From contig LKMP01000015.1 in assembly GCA_001563915.1 (NCBI GenBank), forward strand, positions 1-20,635: a DNA stretch of 20,635 nucleotides. The letters run 5' to 3'. The position numbers and the translations under genes were made by a program. Numbering within the stretch: the first letter of the stretch is position 1; each line of letters opens with the position of its first letter. This document shows, piece by piece, positions 823-19,092 of the stretch. The DNA comes from Nanohaloarchaea archaeon B1-Br10_U2g21 (GTDB lineage: Archaea; Nanohalarchaeota; Nanosalinia; Nanosalinales; Nanosalinaceae). The notes under the pieces are model-generated. The model did not search any database. It was not told the DNA's origin and was given only the letters and a program-made list of their open reading frames with translations.

Positions 823-2883
823 CTACCTTATCTCACTACCTATCTTTATTTCTTTATTTGTAGTCAACAATGAAACGTTATCATCATCTTCTGCTGCCAG
901 CATCATACACTCACTCTTTTCGCCTCTCAACATTGCTGGCTCAAGGTTTGCTAAGACTATCACTCTTCTGCCTTCGAGCTCTTCTATACTATAGTGGTTG
1001 ACAAGTCCGGCACAAGTCTGTAATACTCTATCGCCGACATCAATTTTAACTTTATACAGTTTATCAGCATTAGGATGCTCTTCAATACTTACAACTTTAC
1101 CCGCCCTAATATCTAAGTCCTGAAAGTCTTCAAAACTCACAGTATTACGGCTTTTTTCCTCTTTAACATCGTCATCTTCATATTCTTCTACCATTTCAGC
1201 CACCTCAATCTTCTCAAATAATACTTCTCTTTCACCTAACTCATGGCCAGGTTCAAGATTCCCTAACAAAGGCTCAATGAACTCATCAATCCCCTCACCA
1301 ACATGAATGTCAATACTCAACATCTCTTCAATTCTTTTAGAAGCCTGTGGAGTATAAGGATAAAGCGCAACTCCTAAAGCACGGATTAAATGGAGAGCAA
1401 CATGAATAGTTTCTTCTCTTCGATCTTCGTTATTCCATGGTTCTTCTTCACTCAAGTATTGATCTCCAAGTCTTGCGAGCTCCGCCACTTTCTCAGCACC
1501 AGTCCTCAAATCGTGGCTTTCAAAAGACTCCGCATACTCATCCAGTATTTTCAGAGCTTTTTGCTCTACTTCCTTATCTTTTTGCGTCAACTCAGGAAAA
1601 GGCACTTCAGAGTCAAACCATTTCTCTGAAAGCGATAACGTACGATTCACAAAATTGCCTATAGTGTCGTTTAATACATTGTTAATTTCTGACTCAAAAT
1701 CGCTCCATGAAAACGTAGAATCGTGTTGTTGCGGCAAATTCCTTGCAAGATAAAACCGCCAGTAATCTGAAGGACAGAGTTCTAGAGCTTCTTCAGTTGA
1801 TAAACCCTTACCTCTGCTCTTAGAGAATTTTGTATCTTCCGCCAATAAAAACTGTTGTATAAACTCATAATGCGGTAACCCATAGCTCATTTCTTCTGTA
1901 GAACCTCCTATCAACATTGAAGGCCATATAACAGTGTGAAAAATAGTATTATCCTTTCCAATAGAATAATAAATATCGGACTCGCCATCCCAGTAGGACT
2001 TCCACTCATCACTGTCTTCAAAAAGCTCTCGGGTGAAGCCTATGTAACCTATAGGCGCATCAAACCATACATAAAGCACTTTTTCATCATACACTCCTGA
2101 ATCAAGCTTTGGAACATCTAAACTTTTTTCTTCAATCCTATTATTAACCTTTTCTACCGGGATCTTGAATCCCCACTCAATATCGCGAGTAATACAACGC
2201 TTCTCCGTATTTTCAATCGCATTTTTTACTTCTTTCAAAGAAGAATCCGGTACAGGACCATTCTCTACAACCCATTGCATAAGTTCTTCCTTGAATTTAG
2301 GAAGATCTAAGAACAAGTGTTTTGTTTCCCGAAACTCAATATCCTCGCTCCCAGAAATAGCAGAATGAGGCTCAATTAACTCCTCTGGCTCCAAAAGCAT
2401 ACCACAGTCATCGCATTGATCGCCTCTAGCTAGACCTCCACAATCAGGACATTTTCCTTCAATATACCTATCCGGAAGAAACCTGTTATCCTCTTCGGAA
2501 TAAGGCAATACTTGAGTCTCTTCAGATATATATCCGTTACAGTAAAGCTCTAGAAACATGTCATGCGTCTGTTTCCTATTGTAATCGCTGTGAGTATTTG
2601 AATAGATACTGAAGTCAAGATCAAATTTTTGAAGAACTCCTCTAACTTTCTCATGCTGCTGTTCCGCTAATTTTTCAACAGGTATATCTCTTTCTAAGGC
2701 CTCAAGTTCTAGAGGCGTACCGTGTACATCGCTTCCGCACACAAAAATGTTGTCGCGGCCTCTCAAATCTTGGTAGCGATGAAAAATATCGGCTGGAAGC
2801 ATACTGCCAACAATATTTCCTAGATGTGGTACTCCATGAATATACGGTAATGCAGATGTTATAGTTATTTTTTCTTCAGCGAT
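823..2883 (-). CDS. metG: Methionyl-tRNA synthetase with C-terminal tRNA-binding OB-fold domain; probable ATC start
   Basis: The frame extends 27 codons beyond the track's ATG 2802 (IAEEKITITSALPYIHGVPHLGNIVGS), which contains the HIGH-type motif HLGN. Also GSDVHG, Zn knuckle CPDC..CDDC, LYVWFDAPIGY, KFSKS and a C-terminal DIRAGKV..HPNADKLY domain. Confidence 0.97.
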   Translation of the reverse strand: MAEEKITITSALPYIHGVPHLGNIVGSMLPADIFHRYQDLRGRDNIFVCGSDVHGTPLELEALERDIPVEKLAEQQHEKVRGVLQKFDLDFSIYSNTHSDYNRKQTHDMFLELYCNGYISEETQVLPYSEEDNRFLPDRYIEGKCPDCGGLARGDQCDDCGMLLEPEELIEPHSAISGSEDIEFRETKHLFLDLPKFKEELMQWVVENGPVPDSSLKEVKNAIENTEKRCITRDIEWGFKIPVEKVNNRIEEKSLDVPKLDSGVYDEKVLYVWFDAPIGYIGFTRELFEDSDEWKSYWDGESDIYYSIGKDNTIFHTVIWPSMLIGGSTEEMSYGLPHYEFIQQFLLAEDTKFSKSRGKGLSTEEALELCPSDYWRFYLARNLPQQHDSTFSWSDFESEINNVLNDTIGNFVNRTLSLSEKWFDSEVPFPELTQKDKEVEQKALKILDEYAESFESHDLRTGAEKVAELARLGDQYLSEEEPWNNEDRREETIHVALHLIRALGVALYPYTPQASKRIEEMLSIDIHVGEGIDEFIEPLLGNLEPGHELGEREVLFEKIEVAEMVEEYEDDDVKEEKSRNTVSFEDFQDLDIRAGKVVSIEEHPNADKLYKVKIDVGDRVLQTCAGLVNHYSIEELEGRRVIVLANLEPAMLRGEKSECMMLAAEDDDNVSLLTTNKEIKIGSEIR

Positions 2884-2889
2884 TACAGT

Positions 2890-2895
2890 TCACCT
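2890..2895 (-). promoter_or_regulatory. Shine-Dalgarno AGGTGA of metG
   Basis: Minus strand reads AGGTGA-ACTGTA-ATC-GCT-GAA. The same AGGTGA-N6-start geometry precedes the integrase TTG. Confidence 0.7.
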
Positions 2896-2988
2896 ATCAA
2901 TAAATGGTTGACAGCAATTTTTATACGGATTAAGTGAAACTCTGATTCGAAGACCTAGATTTATTTACGAGCCAGAACAATCTAACTT

Positions 2989-5634
2989 ATGCATAAGTAC
3001 GTCACCTTTTTTCTGTTCCTGTTAGTCTTCATAGGTCTAAGCACTGCTTACCAACAGAGTACTAGCATACCTGATGTAAATTTTGAAGGCGGAGAAACTT
3101 TTGATCCTAATTCAGATGAAATGGGATCTATTGAAGAGATAGAACTATTTTTCAGACACGATGATGATAATACGCCTTGGAACTCTGAAATTGAGGTGGA
3201 GGGAGAAAGTTTTGAAGTAGTAGACGAAGAAAGAATTAACAGCGATGAAGGAAGACTATTAGCAGAGGCTGAATCACCAATAGAGCTTTTTGAGGGGGAT
3301 ATAGACGTTTTTGTAGATTCTGAAGATCAGCTTCTTTTAACATCAATCGTGCTTATAGGCGATAGAAGGTTTCAGAGTGTTACTCCTGCTGAAGAAACAG
3401 ACACTGGCATTGCCGAAACTCTTGACCCTAATCTAGAAGTCGTAGTTGACCATCCTGAAGACCAGTTTATGGACTTTACATTTTATGATATTGAAGAAGA
3501 ATCAGAACTCGGAGAAACATATACTTTTACTACATGCGGTGTTGAAGGCCGAATTGGGCCTTCTCAAGAAGACTGTGATTCTGAATACGAAGGAGATAGT
3601 CTTGAAGACTCTGTAAATATTGTTGACTCCGGATATCAAGAATGGACTGTTCCTTTTGATGGGAAGTACAATATTACTGCTGCAGGCGCTAGAGGCGGAG
3701 GAGATGATGGAGGCGATGGCGCAGTAATCCAATCCGAACAATATCTAAATGAAGGAGATACTCTGAGAATTTTAGTAGGTCAAGTAGGCGATGCATTTTC
3801 CGATACTTTTACTTCTGGAGGTGGAGGTACGTTCATATCGACCACAGAAGGAAATAATTATACAATGGCTGATGGTACAACTCACGAGCCCTTGCTAGTG
3901 GCAGGAGGCGGTGCAGGCGCAACTGATCCTGGTCATGACCAAGATGGTAGTTTAGATGAAGACGGAAATAGTGCTTACTCTTCAAGCGGCTGTGGTGATG
4001 CTGGTTCTCCTGGCGAAAGTTGTGGGGGAGGCACAGTAGGAGGCGGAGGTTTTGACGTAGCTGGTGGAGGAGGACTATGTGAGGGGGGTGGAGAAGACGA
4101 ACCTTACGACGAAGAAGAAGGAGGATGGTCTTTTAACACAGGAGGAAAAGGAGGCGACGGAGATTCAGAAGGCGGGTGGGGTGGAGGAGGAGCATCAACT
4201 GAAGTATCATGCGATCGTGCAGGAGGTGGTGGAGGCTACTCTGGCGGAGCGGCTTCAAGAGGAGGGAGCGGAGGCGGAAACGCTGCAGGAGGAGGAGGAG
4301 GCAGTTTCGTACACGATGACGGAAATTTGATAGATGCAGAAGCATCAAACACCGGACAAGGTATTGTCGAAATAGAGATTGAAGGAAGTCCTGATCAGGT
4401 GATAGGTACAGATAGTAATATTGAGTCTGGAGAACTAGCAGAATTAGAGTGGAGCGATAGAGAGAATTTTGAAGATTACAGCTGGACTGTAGAGGCATGT
4501 GAGACTGGAAACGAAAACTGTGTCTTAAGCACATCCATATGGGATTTTACAGTCGAAATTTCTGATCCTGATATAGATCTTAGCTTTGAACCTGATAACG
4601 ATCAACATGCTTTTGACGCAGTAGCTGAGATTGAATTTGGACGAGACTCAGGCGAATATAATGAAGAATGCTACTTCAACATTACCAATGGAAATGAAGA
4701 ATACAATCACATAGATGGCGATTTTGAAACTACTGGTACAAGAACTGCAGTTTGTGAGAAGAAAATATATCCTGAGTCTAATGATGACAAATTTGATCCC
4801 GATGATGAATATAATGGGCTTTTTGAAGGATTCGAAGTTTGGGACGATATTGAAGTAGATGTGAACGTGACTGATCATGGTATTGGATCAAATAATTTGA
4901 CACGCACTAACCCTATCCGAAATCAAGATCCGGTAGCCTCACTTAATACTCCTAATGATGGCGGTTTAGCTCTAGACGAAGATGTAGAGCTTTCTATACA
5001 AGTCAATAACCCTGAAGGAGATGACGTAGATGTGGAACTACGAGACCGGAACGCTGAAGAAACACTGCACTCAGATAGTTACTCTTCAGGAAGTACCGTA
5101 GATACAATTTGGGAAGATTTAGATTTAGGAACTTATGAGTGGGATATAGTGTTAGAAGATCCCTACAATCGGACAACAAGTCAGCTGTTGGAGTTTCACC
5201 GAGTTGTATCACGTAGTTATAGACCTTCAACAGGTGTAGAACATGAATACTCTTCCTTAGTTGTCTCTGAAGGCGAAAGCGACTTTATGTTCTTTGAAAT
5301 AACAAATCAACAGTCTACTCGAGACTTTACTACTTATTTAGAAGGCGATGGAGTTGAAACAGATTTCGTTGAAACTGATGAAAGCTCAAAAAGTTATGAA
5401 GTCGAACAGGGCGAAACAGAAAGATTTCATGTAAGAGTTACTGGTGAAAATCCTGGAGAACACGAGCTGAGAATAATTACGGAAGATGATAATCTAAAAG
5501 TAAATACAACAGAAACGTTTCCTATATTTATCCAGTCAAGAGAAACAGAAAGCCATGGAATACCCGGCCTAACACTTTATTATATAGGCCTGATATACTT
5601 GCTAGCTGCTAGTTATTTCTGGTTTTCAGCCTGA
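2989..5634 (+). CDS. Large acidic cell-surface protein: signal peptide, Ig-like repeats, ALK/LTK-like glycine-rich domain, C-terminal IPGL plus transmembrane anchor
   Basis: Hydrophobic N-terminus MHKYVTFFLFLLVFIGLSTA. Motifs FTTCG..G..GP, QEWTVP..GKY.ITAAGA.GG, L.ILVGQ, PLLVAGGG and polyglycine runs. C-terminus GIPGLTLYYIGLIYLLAASYFWF. Several N-x-S/T sequons. Confidence 0.85.
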   Translation: MHKYVTFFLFLLVFIGLSTAYQQSTSIPDVNFEGGETFDPNSDEMGSIEEIELFFRHDDDNTPWNSEIEVEGESFEVVDEERINSDEGRLLAEAESPIELFEGDIDVFVDSEDQLLLTSIVLIGDRRFQSVTPAEETDTGIAETLDPNLEVVVDHPEDQFMDFTFYDIEEESELGETYTFTTCGVEGRIGPSQEDCDSEYEGDSLEDSVNIVDSGYQEWTVPFDGKYNITAAGARGGGDDGGDGAVIQSEQYLNEGDTLRILVGQVGDAFSDTFTSGGGGTFISTTEGNNYTMADGTTHEPLLVAGGGAGATDPGHDQDGSLDEDGNSAYSSSGCGDAGSPGESCGGGTVGGGGFDVAGGGGLCEGGGEDEPYDEEEGGWSFNTGGKGGDGDSEGGWGGGGASTEVSCDRAGGGGGYSGGAASRGGSGGGNAAGGGGGSFVHDDGNLIDAEASNTGQGIVEIEIEGSPDQVIGTDSNIESGELAELEWSDRENFEDYSWTVEACETGNENCVLSTSIWDFTVEISDPDIDLSFEPDNDQHAFDAVAEIEFGRDSGEYNEECYFNITNGNEEYNHIDGDFETTGTRTAVCEKKIYPESNDDKFDPDDEYNGLFEGFEVWDDIEVDVNVTDHGIGSNNLTRTNPIRNQDPVASLNTPNDGGLALDEDVELSIQVNNPEGDDVDVELRDRNAEETLHSDSYSSGSTVDTIWEDLDLGTYEWDIVLEDPYNRTTSQLLEFHRVVSRSYRPSTGVEHEYSSLVVSEGESDFMFFEITNQQSTRDFTTYLEGDGVETDFVETDESSKSYEVEQGETERFHVRVTGENPGEHELRIITEDDNLKVNTTETFPIFIQSRETESHGIPGLTLYYIGLIYLLAASYFWFSA

Positions 5635-8668: not shown

Positions 8669-9172
8669 CTATTCAAAGGCCAATTCATAGTCGACTGCAG
8701 TTATCTCCTGAATTAAGCTCTCTAATTCTTCACGAGACATGTTAACTTTATCCTCATAACTTCCATCGACTACAATCTTTTTCGACTGGCCTCCAGGCTT
8801 GAAAACCGTGTTTATGGATTCAATTTCTGCAGGGCTTAATAGGCCTTTGATAATTTCCTTGTCTTCTTCCGCTTTTTCTACAATTCGGATTGGTTTGCCG
8901 ATTTCCTCTGCTACTTTCTTCACTATTTCTCCTTTACGACCTACTACTTTTGCTCCATCTCCAGAACCTGTTACTATTACTACAACATTTTCCGTGTCAT
9001 AGACTTTTTCAATCGTAGAGTCTCGAAGTGAACCGTGTTCTTCGCTGAGTCCGTGTAGAATCCGGGAGACCTTGATATCTAGGTCTGTTACTTCTCCTTC
9101 TTCATGGTTTTTCTCACATTTACTGCAGAGAACATCACTCTTCAGACATACATTACAGATTGGCGCCTTCAT
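8669..9172 (-). CDS. NusA-like KH-domain protein with N-terminal Cys4 motif (archaeal NusA paralog)
   Basis: PICNVCLKSDVLCSKC followed by a KH GxxG loop VVGRKGEIVKKVAEEIGKPIRIVE. Confidence 0.8.
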   Translation of the reverse strand: MKAPICNVCLKSDVLCSKCEKNHEEGEVTDLDIKVSRILHGLSEEHGSLRDSTIEKVYDTENVVVIVTGSGDGAKVVGRKGEIVKKVAEEIGKPIRIVEKAEEDKEIIKGLLSPAEIESINTVFKPGGQSKKIVVDGSYEDKVNMSREELESLIQEITAVDYELAFE

Positions 9173-9970: not shown

Positions 9971-11038
9971 TTATTTTAGCACCTCTAATCCTAGGTCGTT
10001 TACGTCTCCAGTTACTTCTGTCTGGTTTTCTTCTTCTAGTTCTCCTAAGACATAAGGCGACTCTACACCAGTAACAATTGAAATTACTTGTAGAGCTCCT
10101 TCAAGGTCTTCTTTGATTCTTGCTCCCCAGATTACCTGGGCGTTAGCATCTAGTTTTTCAGTGACATGTTGTCCAACATCATTGATTTCGTTCAATGTAA
10201 GATCTTGTCCTCCTGCTACGTGAAGCAGTGCGCCATTTGCGCCTTCAAATTCTACATCAAGCAATGGGTTTGAAAGCGCTTCATGAATTGCTTCTTCTCC
10301 TTTATTGTTGGTGTCTGACTCTCCATATCCTACTACTGCAACTCCTCCTTCATTCATTATAGCTTGGACATCTGCATAGTCTAAGTTAACGAGTGAAGGT
10401 TTGCTGATAGTTTCAGTAATTCCTTTAATCATGGTAGTGATTAACTCATCAGCTACTCCGAAAGCTTGATCCAAAGGCATGTCTCCTGCTATATCGAGCA
10501 GTTTATCGTTTTCAATAACGATTGCTGTGTCTACGTGTTGTCTTAGTCTATATAGCCCTTCTTCTGCTTTACTCATTCTCGCGCCTTCAATTTCGAACGG
10601 CATTGTTACTGTTCCTATTACTATACAGTCTTCTTTGGACGCAATTTCGGCCAGAACTGGTGTTGCTCCTGTTCCTGTTCCTCCTCCTAACCCGCAGGTT
10701 AGAAATACCATGTCGGCTTCTTTGAATAATTCTCTTAGTTCTGCTCGATTTTCTTCCGCACTTCTTGCGCCCTGTTCAGGATGTCCTCCTGCCCCAAGAC
10801 CTTTTGTTAAGTCGCGTCCTACTAGAATTTTTCTGTCAGCAGAGCTCATTTTTAGGTGTTGTTTATCTGTATTAATTACAACTGTTTCTGCTCCTTCTAT
10901 CTCCTTGTTCTGAATCCGGGTTACCTGGTTGTTTCCAGCTCCTCCGACTCCTACAACTAGGATTTTAGCATCTTTTACATCGTCCAGATTTTGAGTCTGT
11001 TCTTTTTGTTGTGTAGCGTTTCCAATTATGGATTCCAT
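9971..11038 (-). CDS. ftsZ: Cell division GTPase FtsZ, FtsZ2-like
   Basis: VVGVGGAGNN, GLGAGGHP, GLGGGTGTGA tubulin signature, NLDYAD. The GAGG, AR..KAEEGL and PSL.NLDYAD segments resemble the archaeal FtsZ2 clade (subfamily call is inference). Confidence 0.97.
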   Translation of the reverse strand: MESIIGNATQQKEQTQNLDDVKDAKILVVGVGGAGNNQVTRIQNKEIEGAETVVINTDKQHLKMSSADRKILVGRDLTKGLGAGGHPEQGARSAEENRAELRELFKEADMVFLTCGLGGGTGTGATPVLAEIASKEDCIVIGTVTMPFEIEGARMSKAEEGLYRLRQHVDTAIVIENDKLLDIAGDMPLDQAFGVADELITTMIKGITETISKPSLVNLDYADVQAIMNEGGVAVVGYGESDTNNKGEEAIHEALSNPLLDVEFEGANGALLHVAGGQDLTLNEINDVGQHVTEKLDANAQVIWGARIKEDLEGALQVISIVTGVESPYVLGELEEENQTEVTGDVNDLGLEVLK

Positions 11039-11054
11039 CTTGTATCTTTTCTCC

Positions 11055-11091
11055 CGGCGTAGCGAAACCTAACCTTTTTAAATCGGCGTAG
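11055..11091 (-). promoter_or_regulatory. Direct repeat CTACGCCG (x2) flanking a TTTAAAAA box just upstream of ftsZ
   Basis: CGGCGTAG at 11055-11062 and 11084-11091 on plus; TTTTTAAA at 11075-11082 lies between them. Confidence 0.45.
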
Positions 11092-11114
11092 GTAATTCTA
11101 CCTTAGAATAACAC

Positions 11115-11253
11115 AAGTCTTTGCCCAAGACTTACTACACATATGTCATATACGATTCGAACTTTGCCCAAAGTTCGACCAATGATCCGTGTTCGACCTT
11201 ATCTCGTGCCCGCGAGACATGTCGAGTACAGTTCGCTTGCCAAAGCTGAACTG
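11115..11253. repeat. Array of four hairpins with different stems and a shared TGCC/GGCA loop
   Basis: AAGTCTT-TGCCC-AAGACTT 11115-11133; TCGAACTTT-GCCC-AAAGTTCGA 11157-11178; TCTCGT-GCCC-GCGAGA 11202-11217, inside GTGTTCGAC/GTCGAGTAC 11189-11229; CAGTTC-GCTT-GCCA-AAGC-T-GAACTG 11229-11253. Confidence 0.8.
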
Positions 11254-11289
11254 AAATAGTCTTTACTATACTAACATTTTCTAAGCTCA

Positions 11290-11303
11290 TTTATAAACCT
11301 TTT
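11290..11303 (-). promoter_or_regulatory. BRE/TATA promoter facing the hairpin array and ftsZ
   Basis: Minus strand AAAAGG-TTTATAAA. The predicted TSS near 11265 is just before the first hairpin. Confidence 0.55.
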
Positions 11304-11387
11304 GCATCTAACCGTTCATAACTGTTCACAGCTCCAGTTTATACAACTCTTAAACATCTAAAAGAATACTGACCTAAAGAATTCAAT

Positions 11388-11663
11388 ATGAAAAAAGAAG
11401 TAATTGAAACCTCTGAAAATGCCAGAATAAACCTTTCAGATGACGAAGCTGAAGGACTTGCAGAAGACTTCAAAGAAGTACTAAGCATGTTCGAAACTCT
11501 TCAAAAAGTAGATACCGAAGGCCTTAAACCATCATTTCATCCTGTGCCCGTTGAAAAACGGAGTAGAGAAGATGAATCAGAAGACAGTATTAGTGATGAA
11601 GAAGTTTTTAGAAACACCGAAAATGTTCAAGAAGGTTTCTTTAAGGGGCCTTCAGCCCGGTAA
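11388..11663 (+). CDS. gatC: Asp/Glu-tRNA amidotransferase subunit C
   Basis: ARINLSDDEAE..LQKVDTEG..REDE..GFFKGP, directly upstream of gatA. Confidence 0.9.
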   Translation: MKKEVIETSENARINLSDDEAEGLAEDFKEVLSMFETLQKVDTEGLKPSFHPVPVEKRSREDESEDSISDEEVFRNTENVQEGFFKGPSAR

Positions 11664-13330: not shown

Positions 13331-13696
13331 TTATTGAGTATTTATCTTATCACTAGTTCTTTCTATCTCTGCATAGTTAGGCGTTACAACAATCCAATCT
13401 TCATCGACTCCTGCAATATCTCCATCAATTGACTTAACAGTTTTCTTGAGTCTATTAACCGCTCTCTTTAATTTAGTCATATCTTTCTGCTTTAGAGGCT
13501 TGATATTCACCCATACAATATGATTGGCCCTGAGGTGATCCTGTACGTTCTCCACATCATCAAATTCTTTAAGACTTTCAGCCCTTACAACTACTTTTTG
13601 TTGCTCATCAGTCATTTTTGCGTCAAGTTCTACAAAATCTTCTTCAATTACTTCTCCTTGTTCAGAATCTTTTTTATTAAGAAATCCTAGTGCCAC
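13331..13696 (-). CDS. sepF: Cell division protein SepF (archaeal type)
   Basis: GTG start after GAGGT SD. N-terminal amphipathic MALGFLNK, then NHIVWVNIKPL..IDGDIAGV..IVVTP core. Confidence 0.9.
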   Translation of the reverse strand: MALGFLNKKDSEQGEVIEEDFVELDAKMTDEQQKVVVRAESLKEFDDVENVQDHLRANHIVWVNIKPLKQKDMTKLKRAVNRLKKTVKSIDGDIAGVDEDWIVVTPNYAEIERTSDKINTQ

Positions 13697-18965: not shown

Positions 18966-19092
18966 GGTCCACTAGCTCAGGGGTTAGAGCACCGTCCTTA
19001 TAAGGACCATTACACAAAAAAACTCGCCGAAAGGCCTGTGTAGTGAGCCTCGAGAGAGGCGGCGGTCCCGGGTTCGAATCCCGGGTGGACCA
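18966..19092 (+). tRNA. tRNA-Ile(UAU) with a 54-nt intron at position 37/38 (19003-19056)
   Basis: Acceptor GGTCCAC/GTGGACC+A, D arm GCTC/GAGC, anticodon stem CCGTC/GGCGG with CT-TAT-A|intron|A, T arm CCGGG-TTCGAAT-CCCGG. Anticodon at 18999-19001. CCA is not encoded. Confidence 0.92.

Follow-up and report, generated by a model that had tools for sequence, protein, structure and literature searches.

The hairpin array upstream of ftsZ is likely to be a previously undescribed gene for a small noncoding RNA (ncRNA) which, judging from its sequence, would extend for ~180 nt on the + strand, divergent from an FtsZ2-like ftsZ. The window analyzed here is an entire contig of 20.6 kb from an archaeal genome of 816 kb (815,638 bp; 39% G+C). 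Within it, the predicted ncRNA would occupy ~178 nt (11105..11282, + strand), with putative ends and with no Rfam match. Conservation of the array in the phylum and in some Woesearchaeota hints at an RNA that helps to control cell division. The timing of division in the DPANN archaea, which have small genomes and depend on hosts, is to our knowledge not understood. The locus offers a defined, testable candidate, a predicted RNA gene with a simple repeated loop motif at the place equivalent to that of cdrS, and it would be a rare archaeal case of a multi-hairpin, repeated-motif RNA. What appears to be new is an ncRNA candidate that has neither an Rfam family nor a precedent in the literature searched, in a position that appears to be that of cdrS. 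Of transcription factors that control ftsZ2 in other archaea, CdrS alone is known, and it is reported missing from DPANN (PMC7439475).

The array's constant neighbor is ftsZ itself (9971..11038, minus strand; 355 aa), an FtsZ2-like orthologue that matches Pfam Tubulin and FtsZ_C as well as NCBIfam TIGR00065 (397 bits). We compared its product with ten haloarchaeal FtsZ proteins whose genes have a CdrS-like RHH ORF directly upstream. The window's FtsZ shares 48-52% identity with them, against 43-47% for the genome's other FtsZ, a paralogue on contig C13. The ftsZ studied here is therefore FtsZ2-like, in agreement with the type assumed in the earlier note. On the far side of the divergent spacer, which at 349 bp is unusually long for a compact genome, gatC (11388..11663, + strand; Pfam GatC) and gatA follow on the + strand from 11388. 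The gatC gene is the right-hand neighbor in the window's family only, and the array is kept without it in loci L024, L028, L031, L059, L078, L080, and L083, while no array lies upstream of the second FtsZ paralogue. Together, these two observations tie the array to ftsZ rather than to gatC. There is also no cdrS next to ftsZ, as had been noted at the outset. The sole ORF of the spacer (11135-11290, minus strand; 51 aa) has no Pfam match, is not conserved, and is broken by stop codons in the closest relative, so that we rejected a small-protein reading, and the genome's best CdrS-like match is weak and lies elsewhere (C13:65158-65283, E = 0.007). The window further contains a SepF gene 2.3 kb from ftsZ (13331-13696, minus strand) and an 881-aa ORF without a Pfam or NCBIfam match (2989-5634, + strand).

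The four inverted repeats at 11115-11253, with stems that differ and a GCC(C/A) apex, had all been placed correctly in the earlier note, including the starts of their cores at 11123, 11166, 11208, and 11239. Read on the + strand, hairpin 1 pairs 11115-11121 with 11127-11133 (7 bp, loop TGCCC). Hairpin 2 (11157-11165 / 11170-11178; 9 bp, loop GCCC, core GCCCAA) aligns with TTCGAA-GCCCAA-TTCGAA-type hairpins of relatives. Hairpin 3 (11193..11225) has 5 bp (11202-11206 / 11213-11217) and a T-G pair, which give an inner stem of 11202-11207 / 11212-11217 with a GCCC loop, and a predicted outer helix (11193-11197 / 11221-11225). It is the only sequence-conserved hairpin, of the form ACTCG-(T/C)GCCC(G or AAA)-CGAGT. 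Hairpin 4 combines 6 bp (11229-11234 / 11248-11253) and 4 bp (11235-11238 / 11243-11246) with one bulged T and a GCCA loop. Past these four, folding alone predicts a small + strand hairpin of 5 bp that lacks the loop motif (11256..11269). The repeat seen twice on the minus strand is likewise real, with GTTCGACC (GGTCGAAC on the minus strand) at 11173 and 11191.

Such hairpins are scarce in this genome. Only 8 of its ~2,789 GCC[CA] cores are flanked by at least five perfect pairs, and three of these eight are hairpins 1-3, inside 11115-11217 (~100 nt), which places the clustering beyond chance; hairpin 4, being bulged, is not in this count. The reverse-complement core with the same flanking criterion occurs six times elsewhere in the genome. 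A BLAST search of 11100-11260 against the genome matched only the query itself, and there is no second cluster of the loop motif in the genome. The array is single-copy, and not the dispersed repeat or MITE that the earlier note had held against its own proposal. On the + strand, 11103-11285 folds at -48.5 kcal/mol (z = -6.37), with 0 of 200 shuffles as good, and the whole spacer gave z = -3.58 for the + strand and z = -2.84 for the minus strand.

To follow the array through the phylum, we used FtsZ as an anchor, found its orthologue in 62 of 70 genomes, and collected all 62 upstream regions. The spacer DNA itself was matched in 28 of the 36 other genomes of the window's family and in 0 of 20 genomes of the other four families. 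The array was nonetheless present upstream of the orthologous ftsZ in every one of the 62 loci, with 194 hairpins in total, so the conservation in relatives that had been proposed as a check is borne out. Three hairpins per locus were most common (31 loci), followed by four (19), two (8), one (3), and six (1). Two records named "Nanohaloarchaea archaeon", with FtsZ identities of 86-88%, both carry the array. Over 17,257 nt, 254 copies of the loop core (G/T/C)CCCA(A) face one way and 5 face the other. The commonest loops are GCCCAA, CGCCCAAA, TGCCCA, and TGCCCG, and among the variants in the phylum are TCCCAC (one genus) and CGCCAA (family f5). With 254 motifs against 194 hairpins, roughly one motif copy in four lacks a stem, which fits recognition of the motif as a single-stranded sequence. 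The spacings of 43, 42, and 31 nt between the window's loops, read earlier as close to whole helical turns, are correct for the window; the helical phasing is not conserved, since 130 loop-to-loop intervals from the 62 genomes spread over 12-97 nt and show no periodicity.

The stems of these hairpins vary in sequence and keep their pairing. For the last hairpin, the one nearest the distal TATA box described below, 358 of 372 positions in the first six pairs are Watson-Crick across the 62 loci, compared with 131 +/- 12 when partners were shuffled and a maximum of 164 among 1,000 shuffles of the arms, a count that is biased by our hairpin detector, which required five Watson-Crick pairs. A fairer contrast is that 194 of 254 motif copies in the arrays have such stems, against the 8 of ~2,789 cores in the genome at large. 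The last GCCCAA-type hairpin has 33 distinct 6-bp stems in 62 genomes, with all four pair types at each of the inner five positions. Since the bulged hairpin 4 was missed by the detector in the window and in locus L002, hairpin 3 was taken there instead.

For a formal count, we removed one spurious hairpin and ten with odd loop lengths from the 62, which left 51; MAFFT put 32 of these in one register and 19 in two others, and only the 32 in-register rows, a gapless subset picked by terminal-gap pattern, were counted. Among these 32 sequences, 87.9% of the cells are paired (52.7% when shuffled), 83 double-sided changes were found (24.3 when shuffled), and one-sided changes are zero in six of seven pairs (columns 4-9). 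The stems covary strongly, as the earlier note had proposed to check: the covariation score is 0.909, against 0.223 for shuffled arms, and was reached by 0 of 500 shuffles, and control structures slid by 1-3 columns scored at most 0.16. When 39 spacers were aligned with MAFFT and passed to RNAalifold, hairpin 3, conserved in sequence, was the only one recovered. We relied on loop-anchored extraction because MAFFT cannot align covarying stems.

The composition of the stems is unusual. Among 1,479 stem pairs in the phylum, 1,421 are Watson-Crick, 24 are G-T, 20 are A-C, and 14 are of other kinds, and the arrays outside the phylum described below gave 245, 4, 2, and 5, respectively. The tRNA stems of the same genome (460 pairs) have 429 Watson-Crick, 31 G-U, and no A-C pairs. 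An ordinary RNA made from one strand would be expected to be enriched in G-U pairs on that strand; the array stems avoid G-U on both strands, and their non-Watson-Crick pairs are rare and symmetric. The G-U pairs that had been taken to favor a + strand RNA accordingly do not settle the strand (24 G-T against 20 A-C). The avoidance may result from both strands being functional, from a role of the array as DNA, or from templated correction of the palindromes. So many compensatory changes with almost no G-U intermediates form an odd evolutionary signature, which is a question in itself.

We next consider where such an RNA would begin and end. A promoter core lies at 11068..11082 on the + strand, where CCTAACC, at the BRE position, precedes the TATA box TTTTTAAA (TATA1); it is nearly invariant among 39 family members, and a TATA1-like box is present in 62 of 62 phylum loci. 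The sequence CTAACCTTTTTA matches at 12/12 positions, in sense orientation, the box upstream of this genome's RNase P RNA gene. TATA1 can be read as the ncRNA promoter and may also serve ftsZ when read in the opposite direction, the ftsZ ATG being 36 nt from the promoter core; a CGAAA-type BRE sits on the outer, ftsZ-facing side of TATA1 in families f3 and f4 and in outgroups. The phylum loci have only one TATA box between the RNA and ftsZ, and its minus-strand reading resembles the genome's tRNA promoters, so this box could simply be the ftsZ promoter. Were TATA1 shared, the two transcription units may compete.

Between the TATA box and the predicted start lies a block of conserved columns, TAGGTAATTCTACCTTAGAA (11089..11108, + strand), and the 5' end of the RNA is predicted, from this pattern, at A11105/G11106. 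The sequence TAGAA starts 19-22 nt past the TATA box in 49 of 62 phylum loci (exactly 21 nt in 42), and YTTAGAAG also follows the TATA box in Woesearchaeota and other outgroups. At the other end, ATTTTCTAAG (11276..11285, + strand) is a T-tract that we read as a putative terminator, its ATTT(T/C)C being conserved in family f1. A run of at least four T follows the array within 70 nt in 32 of the 62 loci of the phylum and in 16 of the 17 from outgroups, while the minus-strand equivalent, at least four A before the array, is found in 6 of 62 and 11 of 17. The T-tract is weak in the phylum, with five or more T in only 9 of 62 loci. According to the folding, TTCTAA of the T-tract can pair with TTAGAA at 11103-11108 and so close the RNA; both halves of this helix (11103-11108 / 11279-11284) are conserved in sequence, and by eye they show no covariation. 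Taken together, the BRE and TATA elements, the TAGAA spacing, the T-runs, and the folding z of -6.37 are why we read the array as a probable + strand RNA gene. The ftsZ leader of ~225 nt proposed in the earlier note is not favored, as the promoter and terminator anatomy in the phylum and outgroups points to a separate + strand gene.

The TATA-type box on which that leader had been based is present at 11290-11297. This palindromic TTTATAAA (TATA2) is invariant and lies 30-40 nt past the last hairpin, the distance being mostly 29-47 nt among the loci. It is retained where gatC is missing and the right-hand neighbor runs co-directionally with ftsZ (L059, L031, L083, L078, and L080). Its invariance and its persistence there are left unexplained by the + strand RNA-gene model, and TATA2 may fire towards ftsZ. 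Past TATA2 and outside the RNA, a direct repeat, AACCGTTCAT / AACTGTTCAC (11310..11329, + strand), is conserved in much of family f1 and is possibly an operator or the 5' end of another transcript. A ACAGTTTTCAC box similar to this repeat is retained in L059, which has no gatC.

Arrays of the same kind are also found beyond the phylum. Among 41 FtsZ-anchored outgroup loci from other archaeal lineages, at least 9 have two or more similar hairpins in the same place and orientation. Their loops are GCCCAA in L101, L102, L104, and L126, CCCCAA in L094 and L118, CGCCAA in L103 and L113, and GCCGAA in L119. Across all the lineages with arrays, the motif varies between GCCCAA, CGCCAA, CCCCAA, TCCCAC, and GCCGAA. 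Loci L098, L100, L107, and L112 have single hairpins or unpaired clusters of the motif. The array-bearing genomes measure 0.5-1.6 Mb, and the larger genomes sampled are without arrays. Among 80 named loci, clear arrays were present in both Nanohaloarchaea and in three (L143, L144, and L150) of the 11 records labelled Woesearchaeota. None of the other 67 named loci, mainly methanogen, Halobacteriales, Bathyarchaeota, Asgard-type (Thorarchaeota), and other records, has two or more hairpins of the array kind. A few Nanoarchaeia, Pacearchaeota, and Woesearchaeota records among them (L141, L142, and L215) have one hairpin each with a GCC-type loop.

The surrounding architecture recurs in the AT-rich outgroups. 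A CGAAA-type BRE and a TATA box point away from ftsZ (e.g., CGAAAGCTTTATATA in L144), (C/T)TTAGAAG follows ~24 nt past the TATA box, and then come the hairpins and a run of T5-T8. This order, with BRE and TATA leading into the array, TTAGAAG, and T5-T8, is seen in L143, L144, L150, L113, L103, L107, L102, L126, and others. In outgroup genome G154, a separate TATA box for ftsZ is present on the opposite strand, beside the RNA promoter, and in genome G060 (L094), ~230 nt with three other hairpins lie between the module and ftsZ. Homology of the array between Nanohaloarchaeota and Woesearchaeota rests on this shared architecture and not on a covariance-model score. Some outgroups (G185, families f13 and f55, and L105, L108, L109, L115-L117, and L124) have GGGCAA(A) or GGCAA loops at the array position, which could be a variant of the motif or could mean that the gene is encoded on the opposite strand there. 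For G185, the idea of an inverted array, which would have fixed the strand of the RNA, was rejected, as its flipped reading has no T-tract while the standard reading has one.

Searches of known families did not account for the array. Rfam 15 gave four matches in the window at E up to 10, none of them within 11039-11387, so that the Rfam search suggested in the earlier note assigned the array to no family, and 17 outgroup loci gave no match at their arrays at E up to 1. ARAGORN found no tRNA at the array, and the SRP RNA and RNase P RNA genes are on other contigs (C2 and C23, respectively). The hairpins are simple and have no internal loop, and a reading of the sequence by eye showed no C/D or H/ACA box pair. 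Searches of the literature on Nanohaloarchaeota, Woesearchaeota, and DPANN ftsZ or noncoding RNA yielded no such RNA. Elsewhere in the window, Rfam matches a tRNA of 127 nt at 18966-19092 (+ strand; 52.6 bits), which presumably contains an intron; ARAGORN in default mode reported no tRNA in the window despite this match.

In form, the array RNA is closest to the bacterial repeated-motif sponge RNAs. CsrB, RsmY, and RsmZ are small RNAs that sequester the proteins CsrA/RsmA, which recognize a GGA or ANGGA motif. Like them, the array is a short multi-hairpin RNA in prediction, with differing stems, one repeated loop motif, extra unpaired motif copies between hairpins, and a unit number that varies among relatives. 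It fails their defining GGA motif, having (G/C/T)CCCA(A) or CGCCAA instead, and differs also in its archaeal host, its fixed place beside ftsZ, and its stems without G-U pairs; we know of no CsrA-like partner for it. Staphylococcal RNAIII and the Rsa sRNAs have C-rich (UCCC) loops that pair with Shine-Dalgarno regions. The array similarly has several C-rich apical loops in one RNA, but it is archaeal, its motif varies by lineage, and no conserved complementary G-rich site was found in the adjoining ftsZ. CopA/CopT and RNAI/RNAII, the kissing-loop antisense RNAs of plasmid copy control, share with it G+C-rich loops and, possibly, constraint on both strands, whereas the array's loops are identical across hairpins and its place is chromosomal, beside a cell-division gene. 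A cdrS-ftsZ2 module is described for Halobacteria and other archaea (PMC7439475; PMC8406309), and PMC7439475 reports CdrS from every major archaeal group except DPANN. The array resembles this module as a small putative regulatory gene directly upstream of an FtsZ2-type ftsZ (an RHH ORF is present in 10 of 10 haloarchaeal loci). It departs from it in that the slot would hold a divergent ncRNA gene and not a co-transcribed RHH protein gene.

Our best explanation, which we regard as about equally likely to hold or to fail, is an independent + strand RNA gene that serves as a multivalent loop-binding platform and whose output is coupled with that of ftsZ. Transcription would proceed from CCTAACC-TTTTTAAA, back to back with the ftsZ promoter or sharing it, would start at the conserved TTAGAA and run away from ftsZ, and would end at the T-tract before TTTATAAA. 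The transcript would fold into 3-5 short, perfectly paired hairpins, each displaying the motif (GCCCAA here) as a single strand, and the repeated loops would hold or titrate several copies of a single factor specific for the loop, probably a protein that binds RNA. With the RNA gene and the FtsZ2-type ftsZ on one control region, their outputs would be coupled. Transcription, the exact ends, the binder, and the effect on cell division are all things that we infer from these patterns. Multivalent binding is our best functional guess, and the more specific proposal that the RNA acts as a platform for a protein is tentative and falls somewhat short of an even chance. The motif occurs with and without stems, in strict orientation and with a lineage-variable sequence, and a co-evolving, sequence-specific binder would fit this better than RNA pairing. 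One candidate for the binder was considered and set aside. A zinc-ribbon and KH "NusA-like" gene (8669-9172, minus strand; PRK06418-like in NCBIfam at a sub-threshold 143 bits) is the second gene downstream of ftsZ in the window and in most family f1 loci with enough flank. This synteny is limited to family f1 and the two named Nanohaloarchaea records, the gene being absent from this place in family f3 and in Woesearchaeota loci, and it is a weak lead.

RNA pairing could take several forms. A base-pairing sRNA would have the anatomy of an independent RNA gene, with the same promoter and terminator, and its G+C-rich, single-stranded, repeated loops could pair with G-rich (UUGGGC-like) sites in one or many mRNAs. 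We consider this unlikely. UUGGGN or UUGGCG occurs only nine times in 45 distinct ftsZ coding sequences and at no conserved position, the codons at the ftsZ GLGAG site vary freely, and the loops change between lineages without an evident matching change in the ftsZ leaders inspected. For the ftsZ mRNA in particular, we rejected loop pairing, as the 45 distinct coding sequences hold no conserved complementary site. A module of sense and antisense RNAs would instead make use of TATA2, which would drive a long ftsZ leader, opposed by the + strand RNA in cis, with pairing started by GCCCAA and UUGGGC loops. It would make sense of several features: the invariance of TATA2 and its distance from the last hairpin, its persistence in the five loci with a co-directional right-hand neighbor, the universal adjacency to ftsZ, and, if hairpins were selected on two strands, the intolerance of both G-T and A-C. 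We nevertheless hold it to be rather improbable, since most loci have a conserved TATA box 28-54 nt from the ftsZ start, which is enough for a short-leader mRNA, since G154 has a separate ftsZ TATA box and in G060 the intervening hairpins separate the module from ftsZ, and since loops that are identical from hairpin to hairpin are not required of a cis-antisense pair. A broader version is similarly speculative, and in our view doubtful. It would have an ancient, DPANN-specific regulator of FtsZ2 division, predating the split of Nanohaloarchaeota and Woesearchaeota, in the CdrS slot. The array RNA and a long ftsZ leader would converge across the hairpins, and their complementary G+C-rich loops would act as a kissing-loop switch on the FtsZ2 level, perhaps with a loop-binding protein as its reader. 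Such a switch with convergent transcripts would explain the avoidance of G-U on both strands.

The array might also act as DNA, its palindromes being extruded as hairpins or a cruciform, for example under supercoiling between divergent promoters, with a factor specific for single-stranded DNA binding the loops. In favor of this, the stems show almost nothing but Watson-Crick pairs on either strand, which sets them apart from this genome's tRNA stems, and the array lies between two TATA boxes. Against such an element, which we think improbable, stand the shortness of the stems (5-9 bp), the quarter of motif copies that have no palindromic flanks, and a BRE/TATA leading into the array with a T-tract after it, which are conserved across phyla and which a pure DNA element would not need. 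A repeated motif in so long a spacer of a compact genome could, finally, suggest a replication origin, a dispersed repeat or MITE, a small protein gene, or chance, and we regard these as very improbable. The array is single-copy, its ORF is not conserved, and its conservation in 62 of 62 loci speaks against chance. The origin reading was rejected, since the window has no orc1/cdc6 gene; these genes are on contigs C18 and C22, and next to the C18 copy lies a spacer of 830 bp that has ORB-like G-string repeats.

That C18 spacer (2641-3475 of locus L084) contains AT-rich palindromes as well as a pair of ORB-like repeats, CCCCCACCCCCTGATTTCCAATGGAG and a variant of it, and is probably the replication origin. 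Hairpins of another form, GCGATGTAATCGC, occur in a 90-nt insertion between TATA1 and ftsZ in L080 (G054), one Nanohaloarchaeota genome, and recur in the ftsZ-upstream region of a very distant archaeon (L094 of G060, at about 900-960 of the locus). The three hairpins between the array module and ftsZ in this same locus (L094 1310-1415) are long and perfect, with T-rich or short loops, and sit in a ~900-bp spacer of a 0.5-Mb genome.
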